Part shown: positions 25,970-52,249 of the stretch, piece by piece
How the letters are laid out: each line of letters begins with the position of its first letter
How positions within the stretch are numbered: position 1 is the stretch's first letter
Origin: a virus
Taxonomy: Duplodnaviria > Caudoviricetes
Virus record (IMG/VR): IMGVR_UViG_3300005804_000108
Span: 1 to 52,261 of that record
DNA: 52,261 nucleotides
Strand: one strand, 5' to 3'
Notes under the pieces: generated by a model
What the model was told of the DNA's origin: nothing
Databases searched by the model: none
The model's input: the letters and a program-made list of their open reading frames with translations, nothing else
Made by a program: the position numbers and the translations under genes

Positions 25970-26031
25970 GTATCCCCCTTAAATTCGCAGGCAGGATACA
26001 CCCGGTTTTTTTTCGAAAATGCGTTTTCCGG

Positions 26032-26095
26032 CAATTTTGGGTCAATTTTGGGTCAGTTTTGTGTCAACTTTATATCAACTTGCCATGAACTTTTT
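26032..26095. repeat. Six degenerate 11-bp direct repeats upstream of the head operon
   Basis: CAATTTTGGGT CAATTTTGGGT CAGTTTTGTGT CAACTTTATAT CAACTTGCCAT GAACTTTTT. Confidence 0.75.
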
Positions 26096-26151
26096 CTTGA
26101 CAGGGTTTAATAAATGGGTGGGGAAATGTTAAAGGTGGACTCACCAGGGAT

Positions 26152-26178
26152 AAAAAAAGGCCGGCATGAAGCCGGCCT
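26152..26178 (-). terminator. Rho-independent terminator
   Basis: Minus strand AGGCCGGC-TTCAT-GCCGGCCT-TTTTTT. Confidence 0.75.
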
Positions 26179-26182
26179 GATT

Positions 26183-26404
26183 TTATTCTATCCATCCGGG
26201 GAAAGAATTATTGTTTTTATGTCTATATCGTGAGACGCACGCTTTGCAATATTCTTCGCGATAGCATTCCCAAGGATATACAAAAACAGAATTACTATCA
26301 CTCATTTCCCTGTCACAATATAGGGAGTGCATGCCACAATAAACATTATCATAGGCGATATGGATAATTTTACTTTTTTTATGCCTTATAAATATTTCAT
26401 TCAT
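26183..26404 (-). CDS. Small Cys-rich AT-rich hypothetical protein
   Basis: ORF with LYC...CKAC. Confidence 0.5.
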   Translation of the reverse strand: MNEIFIRHKKSKIIHIAYDNVYCGMHSLYCDREMSDSNSVFVYPWECYREEYCKACVSRYRHKNNNSFPGWIE

Positions 26405-26410
26405 TTTTTA

Positions 26411-26800
26411 TTACGTTTTCTCGGTACCACTGGGGGCATCTTCATATCTTTTTCTTATTTTAATCATCAAATCATTAGATGCACACTCTCGGCACTTCAT
26501 TTTTTTTCTTGGATCACTGGATTTAATATTTCTCTTGTGACCACATTCCAAAGTGGCCATATAAATTTCTCTTGTACATTTCGCCTTAATTATTATGTAC
26601 TGTGGTACATCCTTATCATATTCAACGTTTCTAAAATATCCACCATCAGGAACATTCTGAAGCCCCTTTCTTATATATGGGACGTCAAAACTATCAGCAC
26701 AGTCATCTTGGTCTAAGAAATATTCAAATTCTTGTATGCTTGTTTCCTTAATCCATTCCCGTTTAACAATTTTTTTTGTATATTTATATTTACTATTCAT
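26411..26800 (-). CDS. AT-rich hypothetical protein with zinc motif
   Basis: LECGH...CREC. Confidence 0.55.
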   Translation of the reverse strand: MNSKYKYTKKIVKREWIKETSIQEFEYFLDQDDCADSFDVPYIRKGLQNVPDGGYFRNVEYDKDVPQYIIIKAKCTREIYMATLECGHKRNIKSSDPRKKMKCRECASNDLMIKIRKRYEDAPSGTEKT

Positions 26801-26831
26801 AGTATATTCCTATATTATTTCATTTAATAAT

Positions 26832-27167
26832 TCAAGTGCTTCCGTTACTCCCACTTTCGATCACATCATCAGATGCGCCTTTATAGGACACGCGGGTGAA
26901 TGTTTTAAAAAAATCGTTGATGTTGTCTCTGTGGGCAATATGAGTCCTGTTGATTATCCTGCAGGGGAGGCCCATTTTAACCCACTGACTAAAATTATAT
27001 TCTGACCAATCATAGACGGACATGATTTCATTTTTATTTAAAAAAATACCATCACGCACTTGGCGCTTGAGCTGCTCGATCAGCGCGTCCTGCTCGCGGA
27101 TGCGTTCCTGCAGGCCCGCGATCGTCTGCAGATAGGTTTTTTCGGTTTCCTTCGGATCACCCGCCAT
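26832..27167 (-). CDS. Coiled-coil plus MerR/Xis-like HTH protein
   Basis: NKNEIMSVYDWSEYNFSQWVKMGLPCRII; coupled to terL. Confidence 0.55.
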   Translation of the reverse strand: MAGDPKETEKTYLQTIAGLQERIREQDALIEQLKRQVRDGIFLNKNEIMSVYDWSEYNFSQWVKMGLPCRIINRTHIAHRDNINDFFKTFTRVSYKGASDDVIESGSNGST

Positions 27168-37361: not shown

Positions 37362-38147
37362 TTACTTTGCTGTCTTGATTGCATCATCCATGGCCTCATT
37401 GAAGTTGTTGCAAAGATTGCGATCGATTACTTTTTGCGCTGTTTCGTAAAATGGGAATCTCTTTTGATACGATGGTTCTTTGACGAACATCATAATCGGC
37501 TTTATGGCGCTTCCGGCAGCGAATCCAACTCGTTTATAGATACCAGGTCGAAGATGCTGCTTTCGTCCGAACCATTCACCCTTTCCCTTTGACACAAAGT
37601 ATTCATACCCGAGCTTTTTCTTAGATCCACGTTTCAACGATGCCTTGCGTTGGTCTGTGATGTTTGCCCGATATCCCTGTTCACCGAACGCTCTGAAGTA
37701 TGAAAGGATTTGAACGATGAAACTTCCAGGGATATTCCCGTACGCGTCCAGCTGGCATGCCTCACCAGGCGCAACATACATACCTGCAGGCAATACACCG
37801 ATGCGTCTCAGCGCCGATTCGAACCGCTTCAAGTTGCGCTTTCCGCCTTCTACCTGTGGCTGAATATAGTTGGCAGCTGGATTACCTTTACCAACTCCGG
37901 ATCGATCCTTGAAGTATACCATCGATGTCAGATCCTTTTTTGTCGCTGGTTTTACATATAGGCTGTTCTGTGTGTAAGGAGTAGGACGATCAAGATAGGA
38001 TGGCATTTGTTTTATCTCTGCCTCTTTGACATCCTGGGCTGTTTTGGTGAGCGCCTTGGCCAGTGCAAACGGCATCTGGTTTTTTTCCAGGTCCGTCATC
38101 ATTGATTGCAGTTCTTTCAAGCCTTTGAATTCGATCTTGATATCCAT
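37362..38147 (-). CDS. Minor tail protein Z-like
   Basis: QMPFALAKALTKTAQ, LDRPTPYT, LDAYGNI, RFPFYE. Confidence 0.7.
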   Translation of the reverse strand: MDIKIEFKGLKELQSMMTDLEKNQMPFALAKALTKTAQDVKEAEIKQMPSYLDRPTPYTQNSLYVKPATKKDLTSMVYFKDRSGVGKGNPAANYIQPQVEGGKRNLKRFESALRRIGVLPAGMYVAPGEACQLDAYGNIPGSFIVQILSYFRAFGEQGYRANITDQRKASLKRGSKKKLGYEYFVSKGKGEWFGRKQHLRPGIYKRVGFAAGSAIKPIMMFVKEPSYQKRFPFYETAQKVIDRNLCNNFNEAMDDAIKTAK

Positions 38148-38272
38148 ACCGGTCCAGCCTCTGATATTCGAATTTGAAAAAGTCGCTCCACAGGGCATCC
38201 TCGCAAGGTGGATTTACCTGTGGCGCCGGCGTCCGATTGCCGTGTCCGGACGCCGGCTATGGCAGCAGCACA

Positions 38273-40608: not shown

Positions 40609-40654
40609 ATTCGTAATCAGTAGGTCACCAGTTCAAATCTGGTCATCGGCTCCA
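40609..40654 (+). repeat. att site copy 1: 3' half of tRNA-Thr(CGT)
   Basis: ATTCGTAATCAGTAGGTCACCAGTTCAAATCTGGTCATCGGCTCCA: CGT anticodon loop, T-arm, acceptor strand, CCA; no 5' half upstream. Confidence 0.92.
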
Positions 40655-40657
40655 TAA

Positions 40658-40718
40658 AATCAAGTAGTTACATGATTCGTCTTTTTTTGCATGATCTTCA
40701 TGTAGCCTTTATGTAGCC
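40658..40718 (+). promoter_or_regulatory. IHF site and integrase arm-type sites (satellite left end)
   Basis: AATCAAGTAGTTA matches WATCAANNNNTTR; ATGTAGCC at 40700 and 40711. Confidence 0.65.
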
Positions 40719-40866
40719 ATAAAAATGGTAAATGTTGCGTGAAATTGTTTATTAAATAAAACCCCACAGCCGATATGGTTATACAGAGATTGCAACTTGA
40801 CTTTTAGTCAAAGATTGGTTTATTAGTAACAAGGAGCGACGAAAGCCATTTGAGGAGGCCGGAGTC

Positions 40867-41445
40867 ATGAGTCAGATAGAATCAAAAAAAATCATTCAAT
40901 CAATTTGTTATATACTTAGAGGAATTAAAAGGGCCAATAAATTAAAGCTCGTTAAATTACTTTATCTCTCAGACAAATACCATATCATAAATTATGGTCG
41001 TACGGTAACTGGAGACGAATATTGGGCAATGGATTATGGTCCTGTTGGTTCTACGGCGAAAGATATTCTTAGTATGGATAAAGATTTTTTATCCATAGAA
41101 TATGAAGAAGCATCTAAATTTCTGAAGAAAAAAGGAGACCATGATTTCGTAATAGGTGAAACTTGCTCTGATGACGATTTGGACTTGCTATCTGATACAG
41201 ACAAAGAGGCAATTGACTTTGTACTAAAAAAATTTGGGGAATTTTCTTCGGGTGATCTCATTAACTATACACATAAATATCCTGAATGGGCTCAATATGA
41301 AGAAATTTTCAAAAACAAACTCAGTAAACGGCAACGTATTGGCACAGAGGAACTTCTGTCTCTCCTTGAAGATGATATTATAAAAATACCAGATAACAAT
41401 AAAATAGCAGAATCAAAAGAAATACACACAGGGATGTTTTCTTAA
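40867..41445 (+). CDS. Panacea-domain (DUF4065/SocA-like) antitoxin
   Basis: KLKLVKLLYLSD...YGRTVTGDEYWAMDYGPV...LINYTHKYPEW. Confidence 0.85.
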   Translation: MSQIESKKIIQSICYILRGIKRANKLKLVKLLYLSDKYHIINYGRTVTGDEYWAMDYGPVGSTAKDILSMDKDFLSIEYEEASKFLKKKGDHDFVIGETCSDDDLDLLSDTDKEAIDFVLKKFGEFSSGDLINYTHKYPEWAQYEEIFKNKLSKRQRIGTEELLSLLEDDIIKIPDNNKIAESKEIHTGMFS

Positions 41446-41448
41446 TAA

Positions 41449-41904
41449 ATGGATCTTCCGCCTAGTTTAATCCTTGGCTCCATTAGTGATTTTTGTGTTC
41501 TCTTTTTTAAGGACAAAAATCATGACAAAGATGCTCCGCCCCATTTTCATATAGTTTTTCCAGTTAGTGATGACGCAGGTTTGATTGTCACAATCATCAC
41601 AAGCCAGATTGATAAAAGAAGAAAATATTATAGCGATAAAGAAGCAGCACTACATTCACTTGTTGGCATAAACAATGACGTTTTTGAGTTCCTGAAACAA
41701 AAAAGTATTATTGATTGCAATCATGCTGAATTATTAACCAAATCTGAATTGATTAATAGGATTGATCGCAGTCATGAGTGGCATATTAAATCCCGTAAAA
41801 TACCATTATTTTTAAAAAGAGAAGTCTGCGCAGCAATCAAAGGAAGTCCATTAATTTCGCCATATGTTAAAAAATTAGTAAAAGAAGTTCTCAAGTCATT
41901 ATAG
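41449..41904 (+). CDS. Putative toxin, PemK/MazF-like fold
   Basis: PHFHIV, IITSQ, FLKQKSIIDCN; 3 bp after the antitoxin. Confidence 0.55.
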   Translation: MDLPPSLILGSISDFCVLFFKDKNHDKDAPPHFHIVFPVSDDAGLIVTIITSQIDKRRKYYSDKEAALHSLVGINNDVFEFLKQKSIIDCNHAELLTKSELINRIDRSHEWHIKSRKIPLFLKREVCAAIKGSPLISPYVKKLVKEVLKSL

Positions 41905-41943
41905 AAATTATTGATTATAATTAAGTTTGCTTGCGTCGATTCA

Positions 41944-41971
41944 GAAAAAGGCGGGCAAACCCCGCCTTTTT
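41944..41971. terminator. Bidirectional terminator
   Basis: AAAAAGGCGGG-CAAAC-CCCGCCTTTTT between convergent genes. Confidence 0.8.
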
Positions 41972-41993
41972 CGTTTCAATCCGAAACATGGTT

Positions 41994-42272
41994 TTATGCC
42001 GTCGTTGACTGCTTCTCTTCGCCGATTAATGATTCTAGGTCTTCAGTTATGTCTCGATTCCATTCTATGACCTCGCTCAAAAGTGTTTTTACGCCTAAAT
42101 AAAGCATGGCGGGATCTTCCGGATCATTATAACCATCGCATCCCGGTGGGACGGCGAAAAGTTCCAGAAGGATGCCCAATTTATAACGGCTCATATCAAG
42201 CTTTTCATATATGACAGACATACGTGTTGGCATATCTTTAATCGTTTCTGTTATATTATTTCCCCCGCTCAT
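41994..42272 (-). CDS. Hypothetical protein
   Basis: GGAGG SD; ATGA overlap. Confidence 0.6.
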   Translation of the reverse strand: MSGGNNITETIKDMPTRMSVIYEKLDMSRYKLGILLELFAVPPGCDGYNDPEDPAMLYLGVKTLLSEVIEWNRDITEDLESLIGEEKQSTTA

Positions 42273-42685
42273 GCCGTCACCTCCGGATTATTGTTTTGTT
42301 CCTTCTGCCATTTCTTAAATTCATCGGAAATTAAATCATCGGCTGTGAAGGTTTTCGTTTTTTGAGGCGGCTTATAAAGACCGCCCTTTAAAACAGTCAG
42401 TCGTTCAATTCTTTTACGGGATGAATTGACAATGGCTTTTGCCCTTTTGGTTTTCTCAGCTTGAAATATATCGTGAATTTCTTGAATTTTATTTCTTGCC
42501 TCTTTGCTTCTACAAATTGCCATATTAACATCAGATTTTATTTCTTCCGGCGTCCACTCTTTATCTGCATTTCTCTTGATACTACTCAGCATAATAAATA
42601 TATCTGTGTCTAAATTTTCTAAAATTCCACCAACCTGTTCATATAAAGCTTGTTGATTAATAAAAACATCAGATTTTGTTCCCAT
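42269..42685 (-). CDS. Hypothetical helical protein downstream of C4-like RNA
   Basis: GGAGG SD; helical composition. Confidence 0.6.
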   Translation of the reverse strand: MGTKSDVFINQQALYEQVGGILENLDTDIFIMLSSIKRNADKEWTPEEIKSDVNMAICRSKEARNKIQEIHDIFQAEKTKRAKAIVNSSRKRIERLTVLKGGLYKPPQKTKTFTADDLISDEFKKWQKEQNNNPEVTA

Positions 42686-42713
42686 AATTTCTTCGCCTCC
42701 ATAAACAAAAAGA

Positions 42714-42776
42714 GGTCATGGAACGCTTACGCTCAAATAAAGCGCCCGGCCCTTACGGGTTACGGATTCCATGACC
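42714..42776 (-). ncRNA. C4-like antisense RNA
   Basis: 10-bp closing stem GGTCATGGAA/TTCCATGACC, inner CCC-GTAA-GGG and GCGCT/AGCGT hairpins; segments complementary to upstream leader 42824-42844. Confidence 0.55.
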
Positions 42777-42847
42777 AGATTTAAGTTTACGCCACAAACA
42801 AAAATAGCCACTATCGGGTGACCTCCGTATTAGATTTAAGCATACTC

Positions 42848-42875
42848 AGAATAATCTTTTTATCCAGGAATGCAA
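42848..42875 (-). promoter_or_regulatory. Sigma70-like promoter for the C4-like leader
   Basis: TTGCAT-N16-TATTCT. Confidence 0.45.
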
Positions 42876-42994
42876 GTATTTTTTGTTTGACAAAACCCTC
42901 GGTCGAAGAGTAACTTGTGTAAAATGAAATCCATAAGCAATTGAAACTCCATGTTTAACTTAATTATCCTAGCTTTTTGCTTTGCCCCGCCCTT

Positions 42995-43022
42995 TGGCCC
43001 GCCGATGAACGGCGGGCTTTTT
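42995..43022 (+). terminator. Rho-independent terminator
   Basis: GCCCGCCG-ATGAA-CGGCGGGC-TTTTT. Confidence 0.7.
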
Positions 43023-43041
43023 ACAATCTTAGAAAAGATAT

Positions 43042-44463
43042 TTACAGTCCTCCGGGCATCGCATATCCGATTTTCGTATCAGCAGCGACCGATCCGCTTG
43101 TTTTTGTATTTGCCTTTGTCCCGGGGGGAGCATTTTTAAACTCTACCGAAACGCTCACCTGACCTTTGGCTGGCTGATTTCCATATGGACTCCCCAGCAT
43201 AGGATTATCTTCAGAAAGCATCTTTCGGGCGCGGGTAAGATACTTTTGCGTTTCCGAGGGTAATACAGCCATGTTTTTACCGGATTTCAAAAACTTATTC
43301 GCTACCCCCGGCCCTGCGTTATAGGCAACTGATACAGCTTCCATGTCGCCATTGTATTTTTTTAAAAGGCTGTCTAAAATCGTGCTCGCAACAATCTGAT
43401 TGTAGGCAGGTTCAAATAACCTTGAAGAATCAAATCCATATTGCTTCGCCGTTCCCGGCATTATCTGGTATACGCCAATAGCCCCTTTAGGCGATACAGA
43501 GTTCAGCTTACTTCCCTCAAGACGCCTAATAATCCCCAACTGTCTTGATGGAGCTTGAACGGATTTATCTGCCGGTGCCGGACCGATGCCTTTTGCCAAT
43601 AAATCAAACGCCGGAATAAGCATAGGAGCCGCCCATGCGCCAATGCTGTATTTTAAACCTGTCCATGACTCATCAAGTCTTTCCACCGACTTGCGGTATT
43701 TTTCAGCCGCTTGAATGGCCGGGCCCCCCATGACAAGACCTGATTTTCTTACCTCTTCAGACAGCGCAGCAATCTCTGATTTCCCCTTATTCATAAGGAT
43801 TATCATTGACGGGTCAATCCCCAGCATGCCCAATACCGTCTCTTTTGTCTGGACAGGCATTTTTGATTTATTCATCGCATCGACTAAATCAAGAAACGCG
43901 GTTTCTGTATCGACTGTTCCGTCCTTTAACCGTTTTATGGGAACATTAAGACGAATAAGGGCATCTCTTGCTGTATTATTCCTTCCTTGTGTTGCATGTT
44001 GTAATGTAAGACCAAATGAATGAAAACTCGCAGTCAATGCGTCGGATGAAATACCCACAAGCTTGGCTACTCCGCGATAAAGCTGAAGCTTGTCCGTTGA
44101 TATTCCTATGAGCGTGCTTGTTCGGTAAATCTCGGACCCTACGTTTCCCCACTTCTCAGCCAGCGTATTGGCCGTAACGATTACCGCCGCTGCTCCTGCG
44201 GCTAATCCACCGGCCATAGACCCTTTGGGGAACAACGAAATAAGATTAAAAAATGAATCGTGAGCGTCGCTGACGGAGTTTTTGAAACGTATGAAGGTTT
44301 TACCGACCTGGTCGAAATCAAGAGACTTTTTCATCGCCACCGATGATTTATTAACCTCATTCATCGGCTTGACTGATTTGCCGACTACAGCATTTACCTT
44401 ATTTACGATCGCAGAGGCTTTATCTTTGGCGGTTATTAATATTTGAAAATTGTTGTTTGGCAT
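43042..44463 (-). CDS. Short tape-measure-like protein with lytic transglycosylase (SLT) domain
   Basis: N-term FQILITAKDKAS; TMP-like ISTDKLQ, LLNKG-like segments; SLT motifs LEG...SPKGAIGVYQIMP...AYNAGPG...ETQKY; C-term VSVEFKNAPPG. Confidence 0.8.
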   Translation of the reverse strand: MPNNNFQILITAKDKASAIVNKVNAVVGKSVKPMNEVNKSSVAMKKSLDFDQVGKTFIRFKNSVSDAHDSFFNLISLFPKGSMAGGLAAGAAAVIVTANTLAEKWGNVGSEIYRTSTLIGISTDKLQLYRGVAKLVGISSDALTASFHSFGLTLQHATQGRNNTARDALIRLNVPIKRLKDGTVDTETAFLDLVDAMNKSKMPVQTKETVLGMLGIDPSMIILMNKGKSEIAALSEEVRKSGLVMGGPAIQAAEKYRKSVERLDESWTGLKYSIGAWAAPMLIPAFDLLAKGIGPAPADKSVQAPSRQLGIIRRLEGSKLNSVSPKGAIGVYQIMPGTAKQYGFDSSRLFEPAYNQIVASTILDSLLKKYNGDMEAVSVAYNAGPGVANKFLKSGKNMAVLPSETQKYLTRARKMLSEDNPMLGSPYGNQPAKGQVSVSVEFKNAPPGTKANTKTSGSVAADTKIGYAMPGGL

Positions 44464-44473
44464 GTCCTCCTCC

Positions 44474-45070
44474 CTAATCAACGATCCCGTATTCAGTTAA
44501 AAAGTCATTCAGTGCATCACAAATGGCATCCCTTAAGATTGCCGCCGCTTGCGCAGGTTCCTTGCAATTCGCCAACCTGATCGCATACTCGCTGGGGATT
44601 GCCAGCAATTTATTCCGGAGCCCCAGGCATCTGGTCGAATTTATCCTTTCAACCTCATCGGCATCGAGAAGCTTCCCTTCTCGAAGGTCGGCGTCCCATT
44701 TGGCTTGCTTCTTTTCCAGTTCGGCAAGTAAAACCTGCTGCGCCCGGTAAAGGCGGTCAAGTTCAGCCTTTGGCTTTCCGAATATTCCACCAGTCGTCGG
44801 AATGCTGTCTTCCGGTTTTTGGTTGTCTGGTTTACTATCCGGTTTACTTTTTGGTTTACTCTCCGGTTTACTTTTAAAACCCTGCCCATCTGAACGAGGG
44901 GCGCTCCGATATTTTTCTAGGTTTTTATCGCTTGCCTCAACATCGACCAAACGGCCATCCAGAACGAGAAGACCGCGCTTTTGCCATTTGTTAACGGCCA
45001 TCTTTGAAACGCCATGTCGCTTGGCATATGCGGTCTGTGTTTCTAGTAATTTACTCATTTTTTGTTTCAC
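44474..45070 (-). CDS. Terminase small subunit (Nu1-like) of the satellite
   Basis: HTH TQTAYAKRHGVSKMAVNKWQKRG..VDVEASD; REGKLLDADEV...LRNKLLAIPS...ICDAL. Confidence 0.8.
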   Translation of the reverse strand: MKQKMSKLLETQTAYAKRHGVSKMAVNKWQKRGLLVLDGRLVDVEASDKNLEKYRSAPRSDGQGFKSKPESKPKSKPDSKPDNQKPEDSIPTTGGIFGKPKAELDRLYRAQQVLLAELEKKQAKWDADLREGKLLDADEVERINSTRCLGLRNKLLAIPSEYAIRLANCKEPAQAAAILRDAICDALNDFLTEYGIVD

Positions 45071-45110
45071 CGAGTAAACCGAGTAAACCGAGTAAACCTA
45101 TTTTGTAAAC
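44829..45110. repeat. GGTTTACT repeats: four in terS (12-bp period) and three inverted upstream (9-bp period)
   Basis: GGTTTACT at 44829, 44841, 44853, 44865; AGTAAACC at 45073, 45082, 45091; partial GTAAAC at 45105. Confidence 0.85.
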
Positions 45111-45119
45111 TCTAATATC

Positions 45120-45180
45120 TGGTAAAATATCGAGGCGCGCAACTGCCCCTATGGTTTTGTGTATGGCACAGGACCCGACA
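45120..45180 (-). other. Candidate cos/packaging site of the satellite
   Basis: Minus strand GGGTCCTGTG...GCGCGCCTCGAT in the intergenic region directly upstream of terS and its repeats. Confidence 0.45.
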
Positions 45181-45199
45181 CTTTATCCGTTACCTCTTC

Positions 45200-45231
45200 A
45201 AAAAGAGCGGCCCGTTATGAGTCGAGCCGCC
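45200..45231 (-). terminator. Rho-independent terminator after the Sid-like gene
   Basis: Minus strand GCGGCTCG...CGGGCCGC-TCTTTTT. Confidence 0.6.
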
Positions 45232-45282
45232 CCCAAGAGCTTCCTCACAATGGATACCTCATCGCGAAGAAGGGAGATTGCT

Positions 45283-45849
45283 TTACCGTTGAGGAAGAAA
45301 TTCTTCAATAAGCCGCGCCTTATCTTCTGTTAAATCCGGATGGCTTCCCTGGAAAAAAATCTGAACCAGGCGCGAGCCGAGTTCGTCAGCGAAAAGTAGA
45401 CGGCCGCCCAGCTGTTGTGCGGCCAACGTCTTGCGCAAAGAGTCACCGACCGCTTTTTTTGCTTTTTCAGAAAATTCCGATGAGACCATACTCCAGAAAA
45501 GCTTGCGTTGCATCATTACCTGTCTTTGCAGCTCGGCCACCTCTTCTCTGAAATGCTGTTCAACCGACAAGCAAGACTCACCGATCGCCCTCAGGTCTCC
45601 GACCTCATTTTCGGCTTCATGAACTTTACCGCGAGCAGTTTTAACATCCGTCGGATTGCAGCTTCCTTCAGCGATTCCGCGAACAGCATCTTCGACGGCC
45701 TTCCTTAACTCAACGAGATTTGCCTCCGCTTTCAGAAGCTTTTCGCCATTCTCCGTTGCCGCCTGGCAAACGCTCGCCAATCGTTCCAAACTCACCTTTA
45801 AAGTCGTCTCTAATTCCTCAACTTTTCCCGCCGCGTCTTTGATTTTCAT
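45283..45849 (-). CDS. Coiled-coil protein, Sid/Psu-like candidate
   Basis: 188 aa from ATG 45849 (AAGGAG SD); long heptad helices; family is an inference. Confidence 0.5.
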   Translation of the reverse strand: MKIKDAAGKVEELETTLKVSLERLASVCQAATENGEKLLKAEANLVELRKAVEDAVRGIAEGSCNPTDVKTARGKVHEAENEVGDLRAIGESCLSVEQHFREEVAELQRQVMMQRKLFWSMVSSEFSEKAKKAVGDSLRKTLAAQQLGGRLLFADELGSRLVQIFFQGSHPDLTEDKARLIEEFLPQR

Positions 45850-45890
45850 AAAAATCATTTCTCCTTTTTTTGAAATCCGGCATTCACCGG

Positions 45891-46067
45891 TTATTTGTTT
45901 TTTCCTTTTTTTTGAAAAATCCTGTCCCAGTCCGCATCGATTTTCGCCCGTCTTTGCCGTGTCTTCTGCCCCTGGGCGTGCGCGAAGGCTCGATCCCACG
46001 ATGCTGCAATTTTTCGATCATTAAGCCCCTTTCCGAGATGCGTAAAATCATGACCATTGCTCTTCAT
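45891..46067 (-). CDS. 58-aa protein with duplicated WDR(A/I)F motif (candidate mini-scaffold)
   Basis: AAGGAG SD, ATG 46067: MKSNGHDFTHLG...IAASWDRAFAHA...IDADWDRIFQKK. Confidence 0.55.
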   Translation of the reverse strand: MKSNGHDFTHLGKGLNDRKIAASWDRAFAHAQGQKTRQRRAKIDADWDRIFQKKGKNK

Positions 46068-46186
46068 TTTGCTTTCTCCTTTAATTTTTGGATTTGACCG
46101 TTTCTTTTCGTTTGGTTTCACTTTAACTTTCTGTTTCCTGTCGCGAACCGATACCCATTTCGACTCAACCGATGCACTTGAAATAA

Positions 46187-47527
46187 TCATTCCCTTCTCT
46201 CCCTCCACCCCGGCGTCTCCATATCCTTAAAGCTCTGCGTTGCCGCATTGAACCGAAGCTTTATTGTTCCGGTTGGTCCGTTGCGGTGTTTTGCGATTTC
46301 GATTTCTACAATTCCCCGGTTCGGATTGTCTTGCCGCTTATCATAGAGTTCGTCCCGGTAGATAAAGGCGATGATGTCGGCATCCTGTTCGATGGCGCCG
46401 GACTCCCGGAGATCGGAAAGCATGGGGCGCTTATCTGCGCGGCTGTCCACCTGCCGGTTGAGCTGTGAAAGGCCAATGACAGGAATATTCAGTTCGCGGG
46501 CAATGGCTTTGAGCGTCCGGCTGATTTCAGCCACGGCCTGCTCCCGGGTGTCGTGCTTTCCTGGCACACGGACAAGTTGAATGTAGTCGACAATGAGAAG
46601 GCCCAATCCGTGTTCGGTTTTCAACTGCCTTGCCTTGGCCCGGATTGCAGTCGGCGTGATGTCGACCTGGTCATCGATGAAAAGTGGAGCCTGCCCGATA
46701 GTCTGGACGGCTTCGATAACCGTTCCCCATTGCGAATTATGAACATAGCCGCGCCGGAGCTGCCGGGAATTGATGTTGGTCATATTCGCAAAGAAGCGGA
46801 GCATGATAGATTCAGCGGGCATTTCGAGGGAAAATATGACTGTGGGTGTTTCGTGCAACGCGGCATATTTTGCAATGTGGCCGGCAACTGCGCTTTTTCC
46901 CATCCCGGGGCGTCCGGCAATGATGATCAGACCACCATCAGGAAGCCCGCCGGTGATTTCGTCAAGGTCCGTCATTCCCGTGGCCGTACCTGTAACGATG
47001 TCGCCGCCGCGTTTATAGGAATCTTCGATCTGGTGCAGTGTGGTTTTTGCAACATCCCGAGCTGCCCGGATTGTGCTTTTGTGGCGCTCGATTGAAAGCT
47101 TCTGGGCTATCGAAATTGCTTCTTCAGCCTGACCGGAATAAACCGCCTCCGTCATCATATTTGCCGTTTCGATGATCCGGCGCTCATTGGCCTTGTCTTT
47201 TACGATCTCGGCATAATGCCGGGCGTTTGACGCCGAAATAACGCTGTCAGTTAATTCGGCAATATATGGCGCACCCCCGGATTTATCCAAAAGCCCGGCG
47301 TTTCGTAAATCATTTGATACAGTCAAGAGGTCGGCGGCACCGCCTCTGTCAGTTAAGCGGATGATTGACTCGAATATACATCTATTACCTTTACTGTAAA
47401 AATCGTCTTTAGTGAGAATTTCAGACGATTCCGAAACTGTCTTATTATCGCATAACATGGCCCCCAAAACGGCTTTTTCGGCATTTTCGTTATGAGGCAT
47501 TACTCGACGGGTATCAGCGTCAATCAT
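46187..47527 (-). CDS. dnaB: Replicative DNA helicase
   Basis: PHNENAEKAVLG, GRPGMGKS, FSLEM, VDYIQL, LSQLNR, RPMLSDLRESGAIEQDAD, KHRNGPTG. Confidence 0.95.
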   Translation of the reverse strand: MIDADTRRVMPHNENAEKAVLGAMLCDNKTVSESSEILTKDDFYSKGNRCIFESIIRLTDRGGAADLLTVSNDLRNAGLLDKSGGAPYIAELTDSVISASNARHYAEIVKDKANERRIIETANMMTEAVYSGQAEEAISIAQKLSIERHKSTIRAARDVAKTTLHQIEDSYKRGGDIVTGTATGMTDLDEITGGLPDGGLIIIAGRPGMGKSAVAGHIAKYAALHETPTVIFSLEMPAESIMLRFFANMTNINSRQLRRGYVHNSQWGTVIEAVQTIGQAPLFIDDQVDITPTAIRAKARQLKTEHGLGLLIVDYIQLVRVPGKHDTREQAVAEISRTLKAIARELNIPVIGLSQLNRQVDSRADKRPMLSDLRESGAIEQDADIIAFIYRDELYDKRQDNPNRGIVEIEIAKHRNGPTGTIKLRFNAATQSFKDMETPGWRERRE

Positions 47528-48338
47528 ATGCGCGAGCCTCCATTGCACAGTAAACGCATCCAGTGTGTGTCAAGTCAGATTTGACGACAATTCGACGGCC
47601 GCACCTTGAGCACACATAAACTTCCGGATCTTGCCGGGAAGGTTGAATGGCCGGTTCTGGTTTTCCGTTCCGGATGATACCCAAAAGATACTTTTCGTCT
47701 TTACCCTGAGAGGCGTAATCTTTGGCCAGATACGTTTTGATTCCTGACATAACCTGATCTGCCGGGTATTTCTTCCACTGGTGAAGGATGTTCAGTTTTA
47801 CACTGTCGGAAATGCGATTTGTCTTCCTGATGGATGATATGGCCGTGAATGCCTGATTGATTATTTCCTGGTCTTGATAACGCTCTTTTAAAACGGAAAT
47901 TTCAGATAAAATATTTTCAGGGGTTCTTTTATTTATAAAAGAACATTCTTTAATTCTTGTATGTGGACCTTTGTTGGTCATTTGCTGGTCGCTTTGCTGG
48001 TCGTTTTCATCTTCGCGCGATTGGTAAGTGTGCCAATTTACAATAGTTATAATTGAAAATTTGTTGGTCGTTTTGATGGTCAAATTTCCGCACTTTATCA
48101 GAAATGCAATAATAGTGCGGATTTCACGCTCTGTCAGTCCGGTTTCCTGGGCTGCTTTTTGTCTACCAAAGACAAATTGACCTGGCATGAGGTGAACTAC
48201 TTGCAGGCCAACAATCGCGTCAAATTCCTTGTAGCTGGCCTTCAGTAGACACCATGACCAGAACGCCCACAGCTTATGATTTCTGAGCCAACCGGAATCA
48301 AGGGTTTTACGCCATATATGAACGAAACCACGGTTCAT
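47520..48338 (-). CDS. Phage replication initiator (lambda O / replisome organizer-like)
   Basis: GFVHIWRK...LLKAS...PGQFVFGR...TTNKFSIITIVNWHTYQ; internal iterons. Confidence 0.8.
   Translation of the reverse strand: MNRGFVHIWRKTLDSGWLRNHKLWAFWSWCLLKASYKEFDAIVGLQVVHLMPGQFVFGRQKAAQETGLTEREIRTIIAFLIKCGNLTIKTTNKFSIITIVNWHTYQSREDENDQQSDQQMTNKGPHTRIKECSFINKRTPENILSEISVLKERYQDQEIINQAFTAISSIRKTNRISDSVKLNILHQWKKYPADQVMSGIKTYLAKDYASQGKDEKYLLGIIRNGKPEPAIQPSRQDPEVYVCSRCGRRIVVKSDLTHTGCVYCAMEARAYD
47881..48081. other. Satellite replication origin (iterons plus AT-rich tract inside rep)
   Basis: TTGHTGGTC at 47971, 47982, 47994, 48061, 48073 next to AT-rich 47881-47960. Confidence 0.65.
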
Positions 48339-48553
48339 TTACGAGCCCCTCCCAACTGATAGGCTCGCGGATCCGGAAAACGCGCCGTCATAAGTCGCTG
48401 AATCTCTTCTTCTGGAAACGGCCACGATAATTTGACCCGTCCATTTTTATCGGCCAGTTCAGCCAGCAAAAGAAACACATTCGCCGCCGACGGGTCCTTT
48501 CGGAAAATTCGGTTGTACTCGCGCCGGAATTGTCGGTTAGGTGTAAAAATCAT
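48335..48553 (-). CDS. Hypothetical protein
   Basis: Coupled between AlpA-like and rep genes. Confidence 0.6.
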   Translation of the reverse strand: MIFTPNRQFRREYNRIFRKDPSAANVFLLLAELADKNGRVKLSWPFPEEEIQRLMTARFPDPRAYQLGGARK

Positions 48554-48742
48554 CTACTTACCCGCCTGTCCCCCCCCTAAAAGTTTCTCAACTTCACTGG
48601 CCGGCCAGAGCAAGCGACGGTTCGGAAGTTTCAAAGGCCGTAAACCAAAGTAAGCGCCTTTGACACAATAACCTCGCCTGATTGTGCCGGGATCGACCTT
48701 AAGCAATGCAGCTAGCTCTTTCGTATCGTATGTCTTGTTCAT
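48554..48742 (-). CDS. AlpA/excisionase-like DNA-binding protein
   Basis: TKELAALLKVDPGTIRRGYC...PLKLPNRRLLWP. Confidence 0.75.
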   Translation of the reverse strand: MNKTYDTKELAALLKVDPGTIRRGYCVKGAYFGLRPLKLPNRRLLWPASEVEKLLGGGQAGK

Positions 48743-48792
48743 TTCAAACCTCCATCGTTAGATGTGTAATTCCATCTTGTTCATTTGAAGGA

Positions 48793-48823
48793 AGTTTACA
48801 GAAGTCGCTTAAGCGACAGTCAA
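48793..48823 (-). promoter_or_regulatory. Promoter with 19-bp spacer containing a 14-bp palindrome
   Basis: TTGACT-N19-TAAACT; GTCGCTTAAGCGAC at 48804-48817. Confidence 0.6.
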
Positions 48824-48838
48824 GGAACAAAATCACAT

Positions 48839-48862
48839 AAAAAAAGCCGGACATAATCCGGC
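48839..48862 (-). terminator. Rho-independent terminator
   Basis: Minus strand GCCGGA-TTATG-TCCGGC-TTTTTTT. Confidence 0.7.
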
Positions 48863-48943
48863 AAATATCTTTTCTTATTAAATGATTAAATGATTATTTC
48901 TGTTTGTCGCGGGCGCGACAATGGCGCGACAATTTACGACACT

Positions 48944-49543
48944 TTATGAGTTTTCTATCAATTTTTTACCCTTGTTGATAAGACGTTGTCCGCGTTGTTT
49001 TATCGTTTTGTGCTGATTTTTGTTAAGATCATCAGCCAGATTTAATTTTAGTGCAATTTCTTTGGCGCTTAAATCATATTTCAAGTTAAGCTCGCACGCA
49101 ATCAATTCATCGGGCGTGCCCTTATCCTGCTGCCTTTTTACAAATTCTTCCGGTGTCAATGATAACATTTTAATATCTTCGAGTTGAAAAAATAGACCGG
49201 CAAATACTTTATTTATCATCTGTTGATTTAGCGCCGGCACATCCTCCCGTTGAAGGCCGATCTCTAGTAAAAGCATCGCTCGGCCTACACCGCCCCCGAA
49301 CGGCGGTATTCGTAAAATATTTTTTTTCACCATAATTTTTCTAACGTCGGGAAGCTCCAAGAATGTAGCGTAGCGTTCGTCTTCCAGAAGTTCATCGACA
49401 TTTGTTGAAATGAATGCGTTGTTGCGGCACTCGTATGCATTTAACTTTTCCTCCCGAATAAAAGCAAATAGATCGCCTTGACTCAAGCCGGATTTTTCTG
49501 CCGCATCAGCATAGCTGATGAAGTTATCGTCTGATAATTCCAT
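48944..49543 (-). CDS. Putative regulator with two HTH-like regions
   Basis: N-term ISYADAAEKSGLS...IREEKLNA; C-term LSAKEIALKLNL; lies between int and alpA. Confidence 0.55.
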   Translation of the reverse strand: MELSDDNFISYADAAEKSGLSQGDLFAFIREEKLNAYECRNNAFISTNVDELLEDERYATFLELPDVRKIMVKKNILRIPPFGGGVGRAMLLLEIGLQREDVPALNQQMINKVFAGLFFQLEDIKMLSLTPEEFVKRQQDKGTPDELIACELNLKYDLSAKEIALKLNLADDLNKNQHKTIKQRGQRLINKGKKLIENS

Positions 49544-49573
49544 TATGTTTTCACCTTCCTCAGTATCTTGATT

Positions 49574-50881
49574 TCACTTCCCCACTGGAAATTGGACAAC
49601 CTTCTTTTCTTCCTCGCCTGTGGCAATCCTGTTTAAATGACGTTCCCACTTGATTAATGCAGCATGCTTTTCTCTTAAATATTCGTGCCGATCATAATGC
49701 CGTGTCTGCACGCCGGAAATGCCGTGTGAAAGCAACTGCGCCCGGATGTCACGGGAAACGCCCAGCCCAGCCAGCATGGTTTCAACTGTTCGCCGGATGT
49801 CTCGAAGGTCGAAAGACTCCTTGCCGATCTTCCCGGCAATCTCTGTGACACGCGGCCCGGGTATGGAAACATGAATCGGTGTCGTTTTCTTCACAGAGGG
49901 GAAAAGCCAACGGGTTTCTTTTACCTGTGACCGCTTGACCAATTCTGAAACGATAGACGCCGCCACCTGGCCAAGCGGCAAAAGATGCTCTCTTGGTGTC
50001 CGGCGCTTGCCTTTGGGATCGAACAACCTCAAAACTTTGGCGTCTGGGGTCCAGTCGGCAATCTCGGCTCTCAATATCTGCGACATTCGTTGACCACCTG
50101 AAAACAAGGCCAGCTTAAGCGCCATATCAACGGTGTCGTCTCCCAGCGCCCCCGTGTATTGCTTGAGTTCGTCCGGGGTCAATGTCCGGTTTCCGGCATT
50201 GACAGGAATTGTCGGTATAACATCCGTCGGATTGCTGCTGATTTTGAACTTGATAAAGATTGACGGAAGGGCGCTGTCAAAAGATGCGCGTTTCCCGCAA
50301 TTATACGATGCGCTTATCGTTGATCGCAATATGCCCGCAGTCCGCTCTTTGCCTTTTTCCCGCGTTTGTCGGATCAATGCTGCAATATCATGCGCCGTGA
50401 TACTTGTAGCCGGTTTTCCCGCAAGAGTAGGGTCAACGTCCAAAACATGAACCTTGACCACGGATCGGGCTGCCTTCGCTGATTTCAATTTGCCTTTTGC
50501 TTCAAGATAGTCGGCGTAGGATTCAAGAAGCGCCTTAAGGGTATATTTCTTTTTTGCTTCGGTCTCGGTCTTTATCGCCTCTTTTTCCGCGTTCTTTTCG
50601 CGCTCAAGCTCACGCGGATCAATTCCCTTGTCAAGCAATGTCTGAAGCCTCCGCGCCTCTTTACGGGCATCCTCAATCGTCCAGCTGTCTGTTTTTCCGA
50701 TTGTCCATCTGATTGTTGAACGATGAAGCTTTCCTTCAAATATAAAAGCCTTTACGCCGGATGATGTCACCCGGACCGCCAAACGTTGAACAACATCATC
50801 CCAAAGAAAAGCCTGTGATTTACCCCCAGGGCAAACGAAACGCCGGATACGTTCATCGGTTAGTCTGACTCGTTCTGCCAT
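49574..50881 (-). CDS. int: P4-like tyrosine integrase of the satellite
   Basis: Arm-binding N-term (FLWD...LAVRVT.SGVKAF...GIDP); SGGQR, RDIRRTVET, LSHG, HYDRHEY. Confidence 0.92.
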   Translation of the reverse strand: MAERVRLTDERIRRFVCPGGKSQAFLWDDVVQRLAVRVTSSGVKAFIFEGKLHRSTIRWTIGKTDSWTIEDARKEARRLQTLLDKGIDPRELEREKNAEKEAIKTETEAKKKYTLKALLESYADYLEAKGKLKSAKAARSVVKVHVLDVDPTLAGKPATSITAHDIAALIRQTREKGKERTAGILRSTISASYNCGKRASFDSALPSIFIKFKISSNPTDVIPTIPVNAGNRTLTPDELKQYTGALGDDTVDMALKLALFSGGQRMSQILRAEIADWTPDAKVLRLFDPKGKRRTPREHLLPLGQVAASIVSELVKRSQVKETRWLFPSVKKTTPIHVSIPGPRVTEIAGKIGKESFDLRDIRRTVETMLAGLGVSRDIRAQLLSHGISGVQTRHYDRHEYLREKHAALIKWERHLNRIATGEEEKKVVQFPVGK

Positions 50882-51066
50882 GTAGCCAACTCCTGTCAGT
50901 AGATGGTTTTTTATGTGGCCACTTAGTCAGTAGGTTTCATGTAGCCACCATGTAGCCACTTTCTTACAATATCGTTCAATATAAGTCAATATGTGAAATG
51001 CAGTACAGAAGCGATATAGAAGCTATTTTGGCTGGCTACACAATGCGCTTCAATGTGCTTCAATAT
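50880..51066 (+). promoter_or_regulatory. Integrase arm-type sites and phased CAAT repeats (satellite right end)
   Basis: ATGTAGCC at 50880, 50939, 50950 (ATGTGGCC 50913); CAAT triads with 10-bp period at 50967/50977/50987 and 51041/51051/51061. Confidence 0.6.
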
Positions 51067-51078
51067 GGCGTTTTATTG

Positions 51079-51124
51079 ATTCGTAATCAGTAGGTCACCA
51101 GTTCAAATCTGGTCATCGGCTCCA
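51079..51124 (+). repeat. att site copy 2: 3' half of tRNA-Thr(CGT)
   Basis: Identical to 40609-40654; no 5' half upstream. Confidence 0.92.
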
Positions 51125-51187
51125 GAATTCAAGTACTTACATCATCATTAAAATATCAAAGAACAGTAAAATTTGCCCTAAATTGCC

Positions 51188-52249
51188 CTAACCTTTAAAG
51201 GTCCTGTTAACCAGCTTTTGATGCTGTCCAAAAGTTGTGTGGGTATAAATTTCCGTCGTACTCAATTTTTCGTGTCCGAGCATGTTCTGGATACTGCGCA
51301 GATCCGCGCCGTCTTCCAGCAAATGAGACGCAAACGAATGCCGGAGGACATGAGGCGTTATTTTTCGGATTATGCCAGCACGGCGCTTTGTTCCGTTAAA
51401 TGCCGTCTTGAATGACTGGATATTATCCCACAGATATTCTATTTTGGGTTGGCCCTCTTCCAAACGATGGAGGTTTATTTCATCGATTTCAGCTATCCGC
51501 TCTTTAAGCAGCTTAATGCAGCGCCCCTTGGAGCTCAGCGGAACGATCCGGCGCTTATCACGTTTTCCGTGTACGACAATAAAATTATATTTCAGGTCCA
51601 CATCCGTGATCATTGCATGGCGAGCTTCGTCCGATCGGAGGCCTGCCTCGTAAATCGTTGCAAACAGGCTTTTGTGAAAGATATCGCCTGCGTGATCAAT
51701 CATGCATTTTACTTCGTCACGCGTGGCAACCAGCGGCGTTTTTCGCTTGTATGGAAGCAATTCGATATTAAAGCTCAAAGGATTGCATAATGGCGGGTTT
51801 TGTCCAGCCCCCCATTTGATCATTGTTCCCATGCACTGCAACTCAAGATTAATGGCGCGGTCGATACGCTTTTCCTTCGGGATCGGCAGTTCTTTTTGTT
51901 TGGCTTTGATCACGGCCCTATTCAGGGCCTGGGCCATGCGGTGTTCCTTGTAGGAGGTAATCATTTCCGACGACAGATAGTCAGGAAGCAGGTGGCCGAA
52001 GAACGGCACGATATAATTATTCAACATGCGGGGCTTGTCGTTTTTCCCCTTCACGTTGACACGCATCCAGGGGATGTATTTTTCAGCGAGGAAACGGATC
52101 GTATACGGAACAACTTCTTTTGCCTCCAGGCCAAGCTGCTTTCGCACAGACGCCTCATAAGCGATAGCTTCAAGGTCATTGCCGAATTTTTTGCGGCGGC
52201 GGAATCTATCCTCTTCGTCCGGTCCGAAACGAATATCGATCTTATACAT
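51188..52249 (-). CDS. int: Integrase of a second related element (true start may lie beyond the window)
   Basis: Clear paralogue of 1..1059 (shared GKNDKPRML.NYIVPFFG, RAINLEL, HSFASHLLE); GLRSDE, HVLRH, GHEKLSTTEIY. Confidence 0.93.
   Translation of the reverse strand: MYKIDIRFGPDEEDRFRRRKKFGNDLEAIAYEASVRKQLGLEAKEVVPYTIRFLAEKYIPWMRVNVKGKNDKPRMLNNYIVPFFGHLLPDYLSSEMITSYKEHRMAQALNRAVIKAKQKELPIPKEKRIDRAINLELQCMGTMIKWGAGQNPPLCNPLSFNIELLPYKRKTPLVATRDEVKCMIDHAGDIFHKSLFATIYEAGLRSDEARHAMITDVDLKYNFIVVHGKRDKRRIVPLSSKGRCIKLLKERIAEIDEINLHRLEEGQPKIEYLWDNIQSFKTAFNGTKRRAGIIRKITPHVLRHSFASHLLEDGADLRSIQNMLGHEKLSTTEIYTHTTFGQHQKLVNRTFKG

Follow-up and report, generated by a model that had tools for sequence, protein, structure and literature searches.

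Boundaries and gene content of the island

The DNA analysed here (the window) is a stretch of 52,261 nucleotides that IMG/VR records as a whole as one provirus, 89% complete by CheckV. Its right-hand part holds a discrete integrative element of 10,519 bp (40609-51127), the ends of which are set by a 49-nt direct repeat. The two copies of this att repeat (40609..40657 and 51079..51127, both on the plus strand) are identical at 48 of 49 bases and share a 32-nt core, which occurs twice exactly in the window against an expectation of 0. The repeat represents the 3' part of a tRNA-Thr gene and aligns with the tRNA-Thr gene of another genome from the anticodon loop to CCA; no whole tRNA gene lies within the window. 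Just inside both ends, a motif count located arm-type repeats ATGTAGCC on the plus strand, two on the left (40700..40718, starting at 40700 and 40711) and three on the right (50880..50957, starting at 50880, 50939 and 50950). These make up five of the six matches in the window (0.87 expected), and the precise att ends and matching arm sites proposed in a preliminary description of this DNA are both borne out. The island is placed in a tandem array, with a prophage on either side, at a tRNA-Thr site that is common to prophages, and has a GC content of 0.446 versus 0.499 for the neighbouring prophage.

The integrase gene (49574..50881, minus strand) adjoins the ATGTAGCC repeats and encodes a tyrosine integrase with an arm-DNA-binding N-domain (Arm-DNA-bind_3, 3.1e-12; Phage_integrase, 1.7e-8). 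In the alignment, Arg265, Tyr396 and the second Arg and His of box II are all kept, and an Arg is aligned at the first His position of the HxxR motif. On the same strand follow a 199-aa protein matching no family (48944..49543), a 62-aa HTH_17 protein that resembles AlpA and excisionases with weak scores (48554..48742; HTH_17 at 25.3 bits, below the Pfam cut-off of 27; phrog_66, 0.0025), and a 72-aa protein (48335..48553) that accompanies the initiator in other loci: L162 and L163 each have a counterpart next to rep, at 59-69% identity. The 272-aa DnaD/O-like replication initiator (47520..48338, minus strand; phrog_2514 DnaD-like, 3.3e-26; phrog_345 O-like, 6.7e-5) carries four TTTGYTGGTCRTTT iterons within its gene (47970-48073; 0.18 expected). 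Together with a DnaB-type replicative helicase (46187..47548, minus strand; DnaB_C, 1.2e-95), this confirms the complete replication module that had been described.

Two further minus-strand frames match no family. One is a small basic ORF (45891..46208) of 105 aa from a GTG, or 58 aa from an ATG at 46067, and the other encodes a helical protein of 188 aa (45283..45849). A language-model search gave P4 Psu as a lead for the latter, and Psu of P4 is itself a helical protein of 190 aa. The Psu family had no match in the Pfam scan, nor did PF07455 across the window at E-values up to 10, and comparison of the 188-aa profile with the PDB returned generic coiled coils only; the earlier labels "Sid-like" and "mini-scaffold" are thus without support.

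The far end of the island is occupied by a 192-aa SocA/Panacea-domain antitoxin-like protein (40867..41445, plus strand; PF13274, 4.6e-22) and a 151-aa partner of no matched family, whose gene begins 4 nt beyond that of the antitoxin (41449..41904, plus strand) and is presumed from this arrangement to be its toxin. With a GC content of 0.328, the pair forms low-GC cargo. These two genes depart from the single-strand layout given before; the twelve minus-strand genes of the island are all open and closely spaced. Beside the pair lie two small minus-strand genes with no family given, for proteins of 92 aa (41994..42272) and 138 aa (42269..42685), overlapping by 4 nt. Just upstream of the 138-aa gene is a c4-like antisense-RNA candidate (42711..42777, minus strand), which scored 33.5 bits with Rfam c4-2 (RF02944), below the gathering score of 41 (E = 5.6e-4). 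The stretch with the 92-aa gene is absent from a variant contig of the single sequencing run in which the island occurs. The preliminary description had missed the tandem array, the Panacea pair, the c4-like RNA candidate and the two small genes behind it.

The TerS and tape-measure genes

Virion-related genes in the island are just two, and they are tightly coupled. The first encodes a Nu1-type small terminase subunit (TerS) of 194 aa from its ATG (44474..45058, minus strand), identified by phrog_57 (2.7e-18) and by homologue alignment. The protein is full length with respect to phrog_57 and shares 55-61% identity with seven full-length relatives, conservation being strong in the C-terminal half. 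Its closest relative with context is followed after 7 nt by the gene of a GpA-type large terminase subunit (TerL), and a lambda-type terminase is therefore the expected partner. The second gene, recognised by profile matches, combines a tape-measure N-domain with an SLT lytic transglycosylase (TMP-SLT) in 473 aa from its ATG (43042..44463, minus strand). Within this protein of 473-479 aa, residues 9-288 match phrog_2276 (1.6e-30) and residues 327-401 the SLT domain (2.1e-14), and it retains what is invariant in its four closest relatives, namely both termini and the columns of the SLT catalytic region. The closest relative with context belongs to a full contractile-tail phage. From the TerS stop to the tape-measure start there is a 10-nt spacer with GGAGGAGG, a Shine-Dalgarno sequence that makes a strong ribosome-binding site, and the pair is intact at both ends and as closely coupled as had been stated.

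Seven of the eight GGTTTACT repeats in the window cluster around the TerS start (44829..45098, in both orientations). More specifically, three form a tandem row directly ahead of the TerS ATG, and four, inverted relative to those, fall within the part of the gene that encodes the TerS linker. The cluster may serve as a site of TerS binding or of packaging; it had been called a cos-like site, and nothing marks it as cos.

Profile searches found no TerL, portal, capsid or tail tube among the island ORFs, with all nine stop-to-stop frames of at least 200 aa accounted for, which upholds the absence of these genes reported earlier. The same kind of search recognised no tail assembly chaperone or baseplate hub among the island genes. 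Furthermore, the island has no recognised gene for capsid morphogenesis, and 40609-51127 holds no lysis genes, with no holin recognised. When every ORF from seven related loci and from the adjacent prophage served as a tblastn query, remnants of TerL, portal, capsid or tail genes did not appear in the island, and no gene debris was found in its gaps of 212 nt and 356 nt or elsewhere in it, in agreement with the intact reading frames noted before. The observation of an island holds overall, in its ends, integrase, replication module, TerS, TMP-SLT and lack of head genes. It is an element equipped to integrate and replicate by itself, and unable to build its own virion.

The neighbouring prophage and related loci

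The neighbouring 40-kb prophage (1-40400) carries an integrase, TerS, TerL, portal, major capsid protein, endolysin and 1129-aa tape measure of its own; none of its genes matched a tail tube family. Its TerS and tape measure are unrelated to those of the island by BLASTP and profile comparison, the two elements have no DNA in common, and its GpA TerL is 27% identical to the TerL beside the nearest TerS relative with context. The dissimilar TerS and tape measure and the lack of common DNA speak against this prophage as helper, and it is probably not the helper of the island. In a single run, which may be the island's own source, depth was 16-25 for the island contigs versus 17.7 for the prophage contig, and the contigs break at both att copies. 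Neither an empty site nor a circle junction occurred in the contigs of this run, where contigs cannot show absence.

For every module, the nearest relatives with known context are phages or phage-sized viral contigs. No sister island with the same gene set was found in genome_contigs, viral_contigs or metagenome_contigs, nor in 401 + 401 sampled genomes. Two other loci in which head or terminase genes were not recognised also combine TMP-SLT with a Nu1-type TerS. In L083, which ends at a contig end, a decoration-like protein and TMP-SLT are followed after a 9-nt gap by TerS and then tRNAs. L250/G791 (G791 has a CheckV completeness of 34% and is open at its left end) holds an integrase, a primase, SSB, TMP-SLT, a hub, a 221-aa protein that is 74% like the ZF40 spike at the DNA level, and TerS; its frames of at least 400 aa are those of the integrase, primase and tape measure only. 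A further locus, L090, contains tRNA-Gly, an integrase, an O-like rep gene, DnaB, a chaperone, TMP-SLT and a hub, that is, tail-core genes without TerS, in an element whose right end was not found. Common to the island and these three loci is only the TMP-SLT family, with the phrog_57 family present in two.

Other relatives represent whole phages or pieces of them. L178/L082 is a full phage in which a phrog_57 TerS and a GpA TerL occur together with head genes, TMP-SLT and a 502-aa ORF that precedes two small ORFs; from position, we read the 502-aa ORF as the sheath and the small ORFs as chaperones. In L170, TerS is followed by a 65-aa N-terminal fragment of TerL, and L179 has a hub fragment and TerS, without TerL, adjoining host sbcCD. 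The preliminary description had looked to genomes for recurrence of the island and named full-prophage relatives, or a gene set that never recurs, as outcomes that would speak against its satellite. The TerS/TMP-SLT pairing does recur, in the two loci above, and the same gene set was not found again in the contigs and genomes searched; the contrary outcomes are seen by half, with TerS and tape-measure relatives in phage contexts and no identical sister island.

Interpretation and comparison with known satellites

The island, which keeps only TerS and a tape measure from a phage, is probably parasitic on phages, or else it is a defunct prophage that has been neatly trimmed. Its best explanation is a PICI-like phage satellite, a reading to which we give an even chance. 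The integrase would bind the ATGTAGCC arm repeats and recombine at the tRNA core, and upon helper induction the initiator and DnaB would amplify the excised circle. TerS would bind the GGTTTACT cluster at its own 5' end and so direct island DNA to the GpA-type large terminase and the capsids of a helper, while the tape-measure/SLT protein would take the place of the helper's in a contractile tail, yielding chimeric tails by analogy with PLEs. A possible benefit would be the evasion of defences or exclusion systems that target the helper's tape measure. The c4-like RNA and the two small genes would form a separate unit, which may govern immunity or helper induction, and the Panacea pair would be cargo.

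In favour of a satellite are the ends and arm repeats, which far exceed chance, the complete replication module, the integrase residues that are kept, the full-length TerS with the GGTTTACT repeats around its start, the intact tape-measure gene coupled to it, the lack of gene fragments in the tblastn search, the loci of similar build (L083, L090 and L250/G791) and the precedent of PLEs and EPIPs. Counted against a satellite are the phage-borne nearest relatives of each module and the missing sister island, the comparable loci L083, L090 and G791 being incomplete or of uncertain limits, the lack of a recognised chaperone beside the tape measure, the Arg where the integrase HxxR motif should have its first His, the adjacent prophage being unmatched as helper with the island contigs at about its depth, and a gene order colinear with that of a temperate phage missing the block from TerL to the chaperones and the genes after the tape measure. 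Several of these points are shared by the main rival, in which the island is the remnant of a temperate phage, lambda-type in its head and contractile in its tail, that lost this block and its distal tail genes, leaving TerS and the tape measure without an adapted role. We hold this to be a serious possibility, if not a probable one: besides colinearity, the absence of a sister island from the searched contigs and genomes and, in the single run, equal depth, a full phage with the right TerS, TerL and TMP-SLT exists (L178/L082) and deletion products occur among the relatives (L170, L179). Decay would sit poorly with two genes intact at both ends across a 10-nt spacer with a strong ribosome-binding site, with twelve open, closely spaced minus-strand genes and gaps free of debris, and with the pairing of TMP-SLT and Nu1-type TerS in two other loci that lack head and TerL genes.

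It is improbable that the island is instead an anti-phage element, whose tape-measure/SLT protein would be a decoy poisoning the tail assembly of incoming or resident phages, with TerS either interfering with packaging or simply left over. Interference with tail assembly is known from PICIs, prophages and P4-like elements, as described in the available part of one source (PMC11364771), PLE11 Rta targets a phage tape measure according to excerpts of another (10.1101/2025.01.29.635557), the Panacea pair is other defence-like cargo, and the tape measure has no recognised chaperone next to it. All parts of a working tape measure are kept here, the SLT domain and the conserved C-terminus among them, for which a decoy would have no use, and the interference proteins named in those portions of the cited work are not tape-measure homologues. 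That there is no separate element, the island being the right arm of the 40-kb prophage, is very hard to credit. The single provirus call of IMG/VR and the main genes all lying on the prophage's strand would fit this; the att copy at 40609 divides the two, each has its own integrase, the island has arm repeats at both its ends, the prophage has a TerS, TerL and tape measure of its own, and the GC contents and the contig breaks at both att copies separate them as well.

Returning to the PICI-like satellite, we propose only tentatively, and as rather unlikely, that it belongs to a broad and so far unrecognised satellite class of Proteobacteria and relatives, in which a TMP-SLT cassette (with or without chaperone, hub and spike) beside a Nu1-type TerS would put chimeric contractile tails on lambda-type heads, with L083, L090 and L250/G791 as other members. 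If so, satellite finders would miss members because tail genes are forbidden markers.

Compared with a complete temperate phage, the island is missing TerL, portal, major capsid protein, tail tube and lysis genes, and the capsid, portal, TerL and head-tail connectors that distinguish cf-PICIs are not among its ORFs. P4 is defined by Psu, Sid, delta and an alpha-type primase and is not known to have TerS or a tape measure. The island resembles it in its location at a tRNA gene, in an integrase with an arm-binding domain and possibly in a c4/CI-like RNA (sub-threshold), and differs in having no Psu match (by HMM and by profile against the PDB) and no alpha-type primase.

In layout the island is like Gram-negative PICIs: a unit of about 10 kb with int at one end (PICIs, ~7-18 kb), the order int, small HTH protein, replication module and TerS in one direction, a packaging gene (TerS of phrog_57), no head or lysis genes, and accessory cargo at the far end. 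For the AlpA- or Stl-type regulator that PICIs have next to int, the island offers the 62-aa protein as a candidate, at a score under the HTH_17 cut-off, the 199-aa neighbour of int matching no family. In contrast to PICIs, the island uses an O/DnaD-like initiator and DnaB, analogous and not homologous to the primase-replicase (pri-rep) module, has no recognised capsid-morphogenesis gene, carries a tail gene (43042-44463) and occupies an att site common to prophages. In the SatelliteFinder PICI model, as given in the available part of its description, tail and holin genes are forbidden components (PMC10085698).

The preliminary description held that the island fits no known satellite. This is not supported, since PLEs and EPIPs, according to the accessible parts of their reports (bioRxiv 10.1101/2025.01.29.635557; PMC12822802), encode their own tape measures. 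EPIPs of Mycolicibacterium are small satellites with TerS and a tape measure, and their particles have altered tail lengths (PMC12822802). The island is likened to them by gene content, not by homology; in the same excerpts, EPIPs differ in being actinobacterial and in having a serine integrase and head-tail adaptor, stopper, scaffold and capsid-like genes. PLEs of Vibrio cholerae encode a tape measure, chaperone and hub, the hub being missing from some, and their tape measure replaces that of the helper in contractile-tail virions to give chimeric tails (10.1101/2025.01.29.635557, in part). Like them, the island is capsid-less with its own tape measure, known here from genes and in PLEs from virions. 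It differs in having TerS and an SLT domain on the tape measure and no recognisable chaperone or hub, of which both stand beside the tape measure in L090 and the hub in L250. With satellite-encoded tape measures published in 2025 for PLEs and EPIPs, at least in the portions of those reports cited here, the island is thus not a new category.

Boundaries and gene content of the island

A 49-nt direct repeat bounds the island, and its two copies (40609-40657 and 51079-51127) match at 48 of the 49 bases. The 32-nt core of this repeat occurs at these two sites only, compared with an expected count of 0. The repeat aligns with the stretch between anticodon loop and CCA end of a tRNA-Thr gene from a different genome, and the anticodon of its loop in the window is CGT. 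ARAGORN detected no whole tRNA in the window, and Rfam left the partial tRNA ends unmatched, as expected of fragments. Five of the six ATGTAGCC copies in the window (0.87 expected) lie just inside the two repeats. These copies fit the role of candidate arm-type sites for the island integrase, an enzyme with an arm-DNA-binding domain. The integrase retains the aligned catalytic residues Arg265 and Tyr396, and the first His of its HxxR motif is aligned with Arg.

On the minus strand, the gene order starts with the integrase, a 199-aa protein without family, a 62-aa HTH_17 protein scoring under the Pfam cut-off, and a 72-aa protein. These are followed by a 272-aa DnaD/O-like initiator with four iterons within its gene, DnaB, a small basic ORF, and a 188-aa helical protein. 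A 212-nt gap then leads to the small terminase (TerS, 44474-45058) and the tape-measure/SLT protein (TMP-SLT, 43042-44463, 473 aa), and the order ends with a hairpin, a 356-nt gap, and 138-aa and 92-aa proteins. On the plus strand, at 40867-41904 and with a GC content of 0.328, lies a Panacea-domain (SocA/Panacea) antitoxin-like gene together with a 151-aa partner without family. A promoter and terminator scan gave counts not above those of shuffles, and the island DNA was unmatched in E. coli genomes and a phage collection.

Within the 356-nt gap, just before the 138-aa gene, we found a sub-threshold match to c4-2 antisense RNA (42711-42777, minus strand; 33.5 bits, below the Rfam gathering score of 41, with an E of 5.6e-4), with two small genes downstream. 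This arrangement presumably resembles the c4-icd-ant layout of phage P1, and the match and the two small genes may form an immunity or anti-repressor unit.

The 188-aa protein has 8 relatives among 1.84 billion representatives and none in viral_contigs. One of its 30 language-model matches is a cluster with Psu in 79% of members; this identity was rejected, finding no support from HMMs or PDB profiles. The labels "Sid-like" and "mini-scaffold", assigned to island products in the preliminary description, are unsupported. PDB sequence searches with the 188-aa, 138-aa, and 199-aa proteins and with TerS returned nothing meaningful.

The tape measure and the small terminase

The search with the island tape measure yielded 183 matches, the best non-self matches reaching 38% identity. 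The island protein and its four closest relatives agree at the N-terminus, in the SLT region, and in a C-terminal motif, and the relatives carry a central segment of variable length that is absent from the island protein. A 519-aa relative is located within a full phage in a Desulfobulbus MAG (L082/L178), where it comes after a phrog_57 TerS, a GpA-type large terminase (TerL), head genes, a 502-aa ORF, and small ORFs. In Pectobacterium phage ZF40, gp57, annotated as "tail fiber protein/ lysozyme", is flanked by the sheath genes on one side and by the hub and spike on the other, and we read it as the counterpart of the island tape measure by position and length. The full phage of L082/L178 and the position of ZF40 gp57 together make a contractile-tail tape measure the predicted identity of the island TMP-SLT family. 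Single-protein scans of genome_contigs and viral_contigs with the tape measure gave no match, and a wide alignment against viral_contigs gave mostly SLT-only matches. Furthermore, when a tape-measure profile was compared with 401 genomes of the class of genome G003, only three of the matches listed, G003:C50, G311:C7, and G012:C1, reached the tape-measure half.

A 10-nt spacer, itself a strong ribosome-binding site, separates the stop codon of TerS from the ATG of the tape measure. TerS itself matches phrog_57 over nearly its full length. Its relatives comprise seven full-length proteins at 55-61% identity and two shorter ones, all on contigs of less than 5 kb, and the alignment is well conserved in the HTH region and the C-terminal half. 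Five metagenome loci with relatives were found, three of which were examined. In the first (L171), a GpA-type TerL begins 7 nt after TerS and continues past the contig end; this TerL is 27% identical to that of the neighbouring prophage. In the second (L170), TerS is followed by a 65-aa N-terminal fragment of a GpA-type TerL (1043-1240) and then by an unrelated ORF, an arrangement that is a deletion or an assembly chimera. In the third (L173), the 3' end of TerS merges into an unrelated ORF, thiolase-like as read by eye. A single-protein scan of viral_contigs with TerS gave no match, and a TerS profile matched none of 401 genomes of the phylum of G003 in a search run without a positive control.

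A further TerS was observed at L179 (1-8426 of G003:C56), as a second copy on another contig of a MAG with a full phage (TerS, GpA TerL, TMP-SLT). It shows 57% identity overall and is nearly identical in the C-terminal half; it comes after a hub fragment, has no TerL behind it, and is adjoined by the host sbcCD.

The region described earlier as a "cos-like site" does not support that label. What is seen there is a cluster at 44829-45098 of seven of the eight GGTTTACT copies in the window, three in tandem before the TerS ATG and four in opposite orientation in the linker-coding part of the TerS gene. This cluster is a plausible candidate for a TerS-binding site.

Neighbouring elements and the possible source metagenome

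The window spans all 52,261 bases of a provirus record in IMG/VR, estimated by CheckV to be 89% complete. A complete-looking prophage occupies 1-40,400 on the minus strand. It carries an integrase, a 1129-aa tape measure, a tail terminator, a head closure protein, an endolysin, a major capsid protein, a scaffold, a protease, and a portal, as well as a GpA-type large terminase, a weak phrog_57 TerS, a clamp, and primases. The second att repeat is followed immediately on its right by another integrase gene (51188-52249), with 55% identity to the prophage integrase at 1-1059. In the single run with the island, the prophage contig continues for 65 letters past the window start, and these match up to 51165. 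A single tRNA-Thr site thus appears to hold three elements in a row, namely the prophage, the island, and a third one. The adjacent prophage was considered as a helper and rejected, its TerS, tape measure, and DNA all being without similarity to the island.

Two features of the prophage were noted in passing. A strong phrog_1924 match ("minor tail protein", 5.9e-78) at 37362-38198 lies among its early genes, away from its tail genes; the same family also precedes the orphan TerS in L179, and its name may be misleading. A sharp GC dip to 0.354 was present at 26001-27000, between the portal and large terminase genes.

The island was found in one run, possibly its own source, with data available as contigs only. 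For the island proteins, a longer contig of 60,674 bp is also recorded. The contigs of the run break at both att copies, and their depth is 16-25 over the island, compared with 17.7 over the prophage. Additional contigs with 90-95% likeness cover 50434-51351, which includes the 5' end of the integrase and the arm repeats, and a variant contig is without 41972-42268. These contigs suggest that the sample also contains a second, related element. The contig over the Panacea pair has a depth of 24.5, above the rest of the island, so that this pair may be present in other elements of the sample too.

Recurrence, origin, and comparison with known satellites

A local-profile scan of 261 sequences (the window and 260 loci) found a tape-measure or SLT match in 239 and a TerS-like match in 11, with both in three: the window, L083, and L250. 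Locus L083 encodes a head-decoration-like protein, a 139-aa protein, a 587-aa TMP-SLT, a phrog_57 TerS after a 9-nt gap, two small genes, and two tRNA genes. Upstream of these genes the contig breaks off, and the genome contains no TerL of the GpA family, the only one sought. Locus L250 (record G791, 34% complete by CheckV) carries an integrase, an anti-repressor, an 894-aa primase, SSB, a 566-aa TMP-SLT, a hub, a 221-aa protein, and a phrog_57 TerS. At the DNA level, the gene encoding the 221-aa protein shares 74% identity with the spike gene of ZF40. Beyond the integrase, primase, and TMP-SLT, no further frame of at least 400 aa was found in this record. A third locus, L090 (1861-16400), comprises about 14 kb by a tRNA-Gly, with an integrase, O-like initiators, DnaB, a tail chaperone, a 503-aa TMP-SLT, tail-core proteins, a hub, and a second integrase after the hub; it has no TerS, and none of its genes was recognised as coding for a head, sheath, or tube protein.

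In tblastn searches of the tape-measure-relative loci with the island proteins, DnaB was found in L083, L090, and L148 and the integrase in L090, and the other proteins returned nothing. The DnaB of L083 lies beyond the two tRNA genes and is therefore probably a host gene. The replication module of the island (the 72-aa protein and the initiator) recurs by itself in L162 and L163, the former also carrying a TerL-like gene, and the N-terminal half or less of the initiator occurs in six other viral contigs of 19-47 kb.

The preliminary description had proposed a new satellite family, and its core observation of an att-bounded island with TerS and a tape measure was confirmed. Fragments of TerL, portal, capsid, and other tail genes were looked for throughout the island and not found. 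Our preferred reading, held with moderate confidence, is a PICI-like satellite that encodes a tape measure of its own. The main rival, to which we assign a lesser and rather doubtful standing, is a prophage from which the other structural genes were cleanly deleted; relatives of the TerS next to TerL in L171 and of the tape measure within the full phage of L082/L178 are to be set beside the joint recurrence of both genes in L083 and L250. If merely a trimmed prophage, the island would be ordinary.

PICI Tai systems are described as blocking tail assembly (PMC11364771). In the SatelliteFinder PICI model, as its source describes it, tail and holin profiles are forbidden components, so that such islands are rejected by design (PMC10085698); the present island exposes this blind spot. 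The preprint on PLEs of Vibrio cholerae reports a tape measure and chaperone in all PLEs and a hub in most, the tape measure and hub of PLE11 in PLE virions with shorter tails, and predicted tmp genes in putative satellites within and beyond Vibrionaceae (bioRxiv 10.1101/2025.01.29.635557). EPIPs of Mycolicibacterium are reported as satellites with TerS and a tape measure (PMC12822802). Within these sources, satellite-built chimeric tails have so far been shown in Vibrio PLEs and proposed for mycobacterial EPIPs. Should the island be a working satellite, it would extend the chimeric-tail idea to an uncultured freshwater-sediment host and would add a design in which a lambda-type small terminase is combined with a tape measure bearing a cell-wall-cutting domain.
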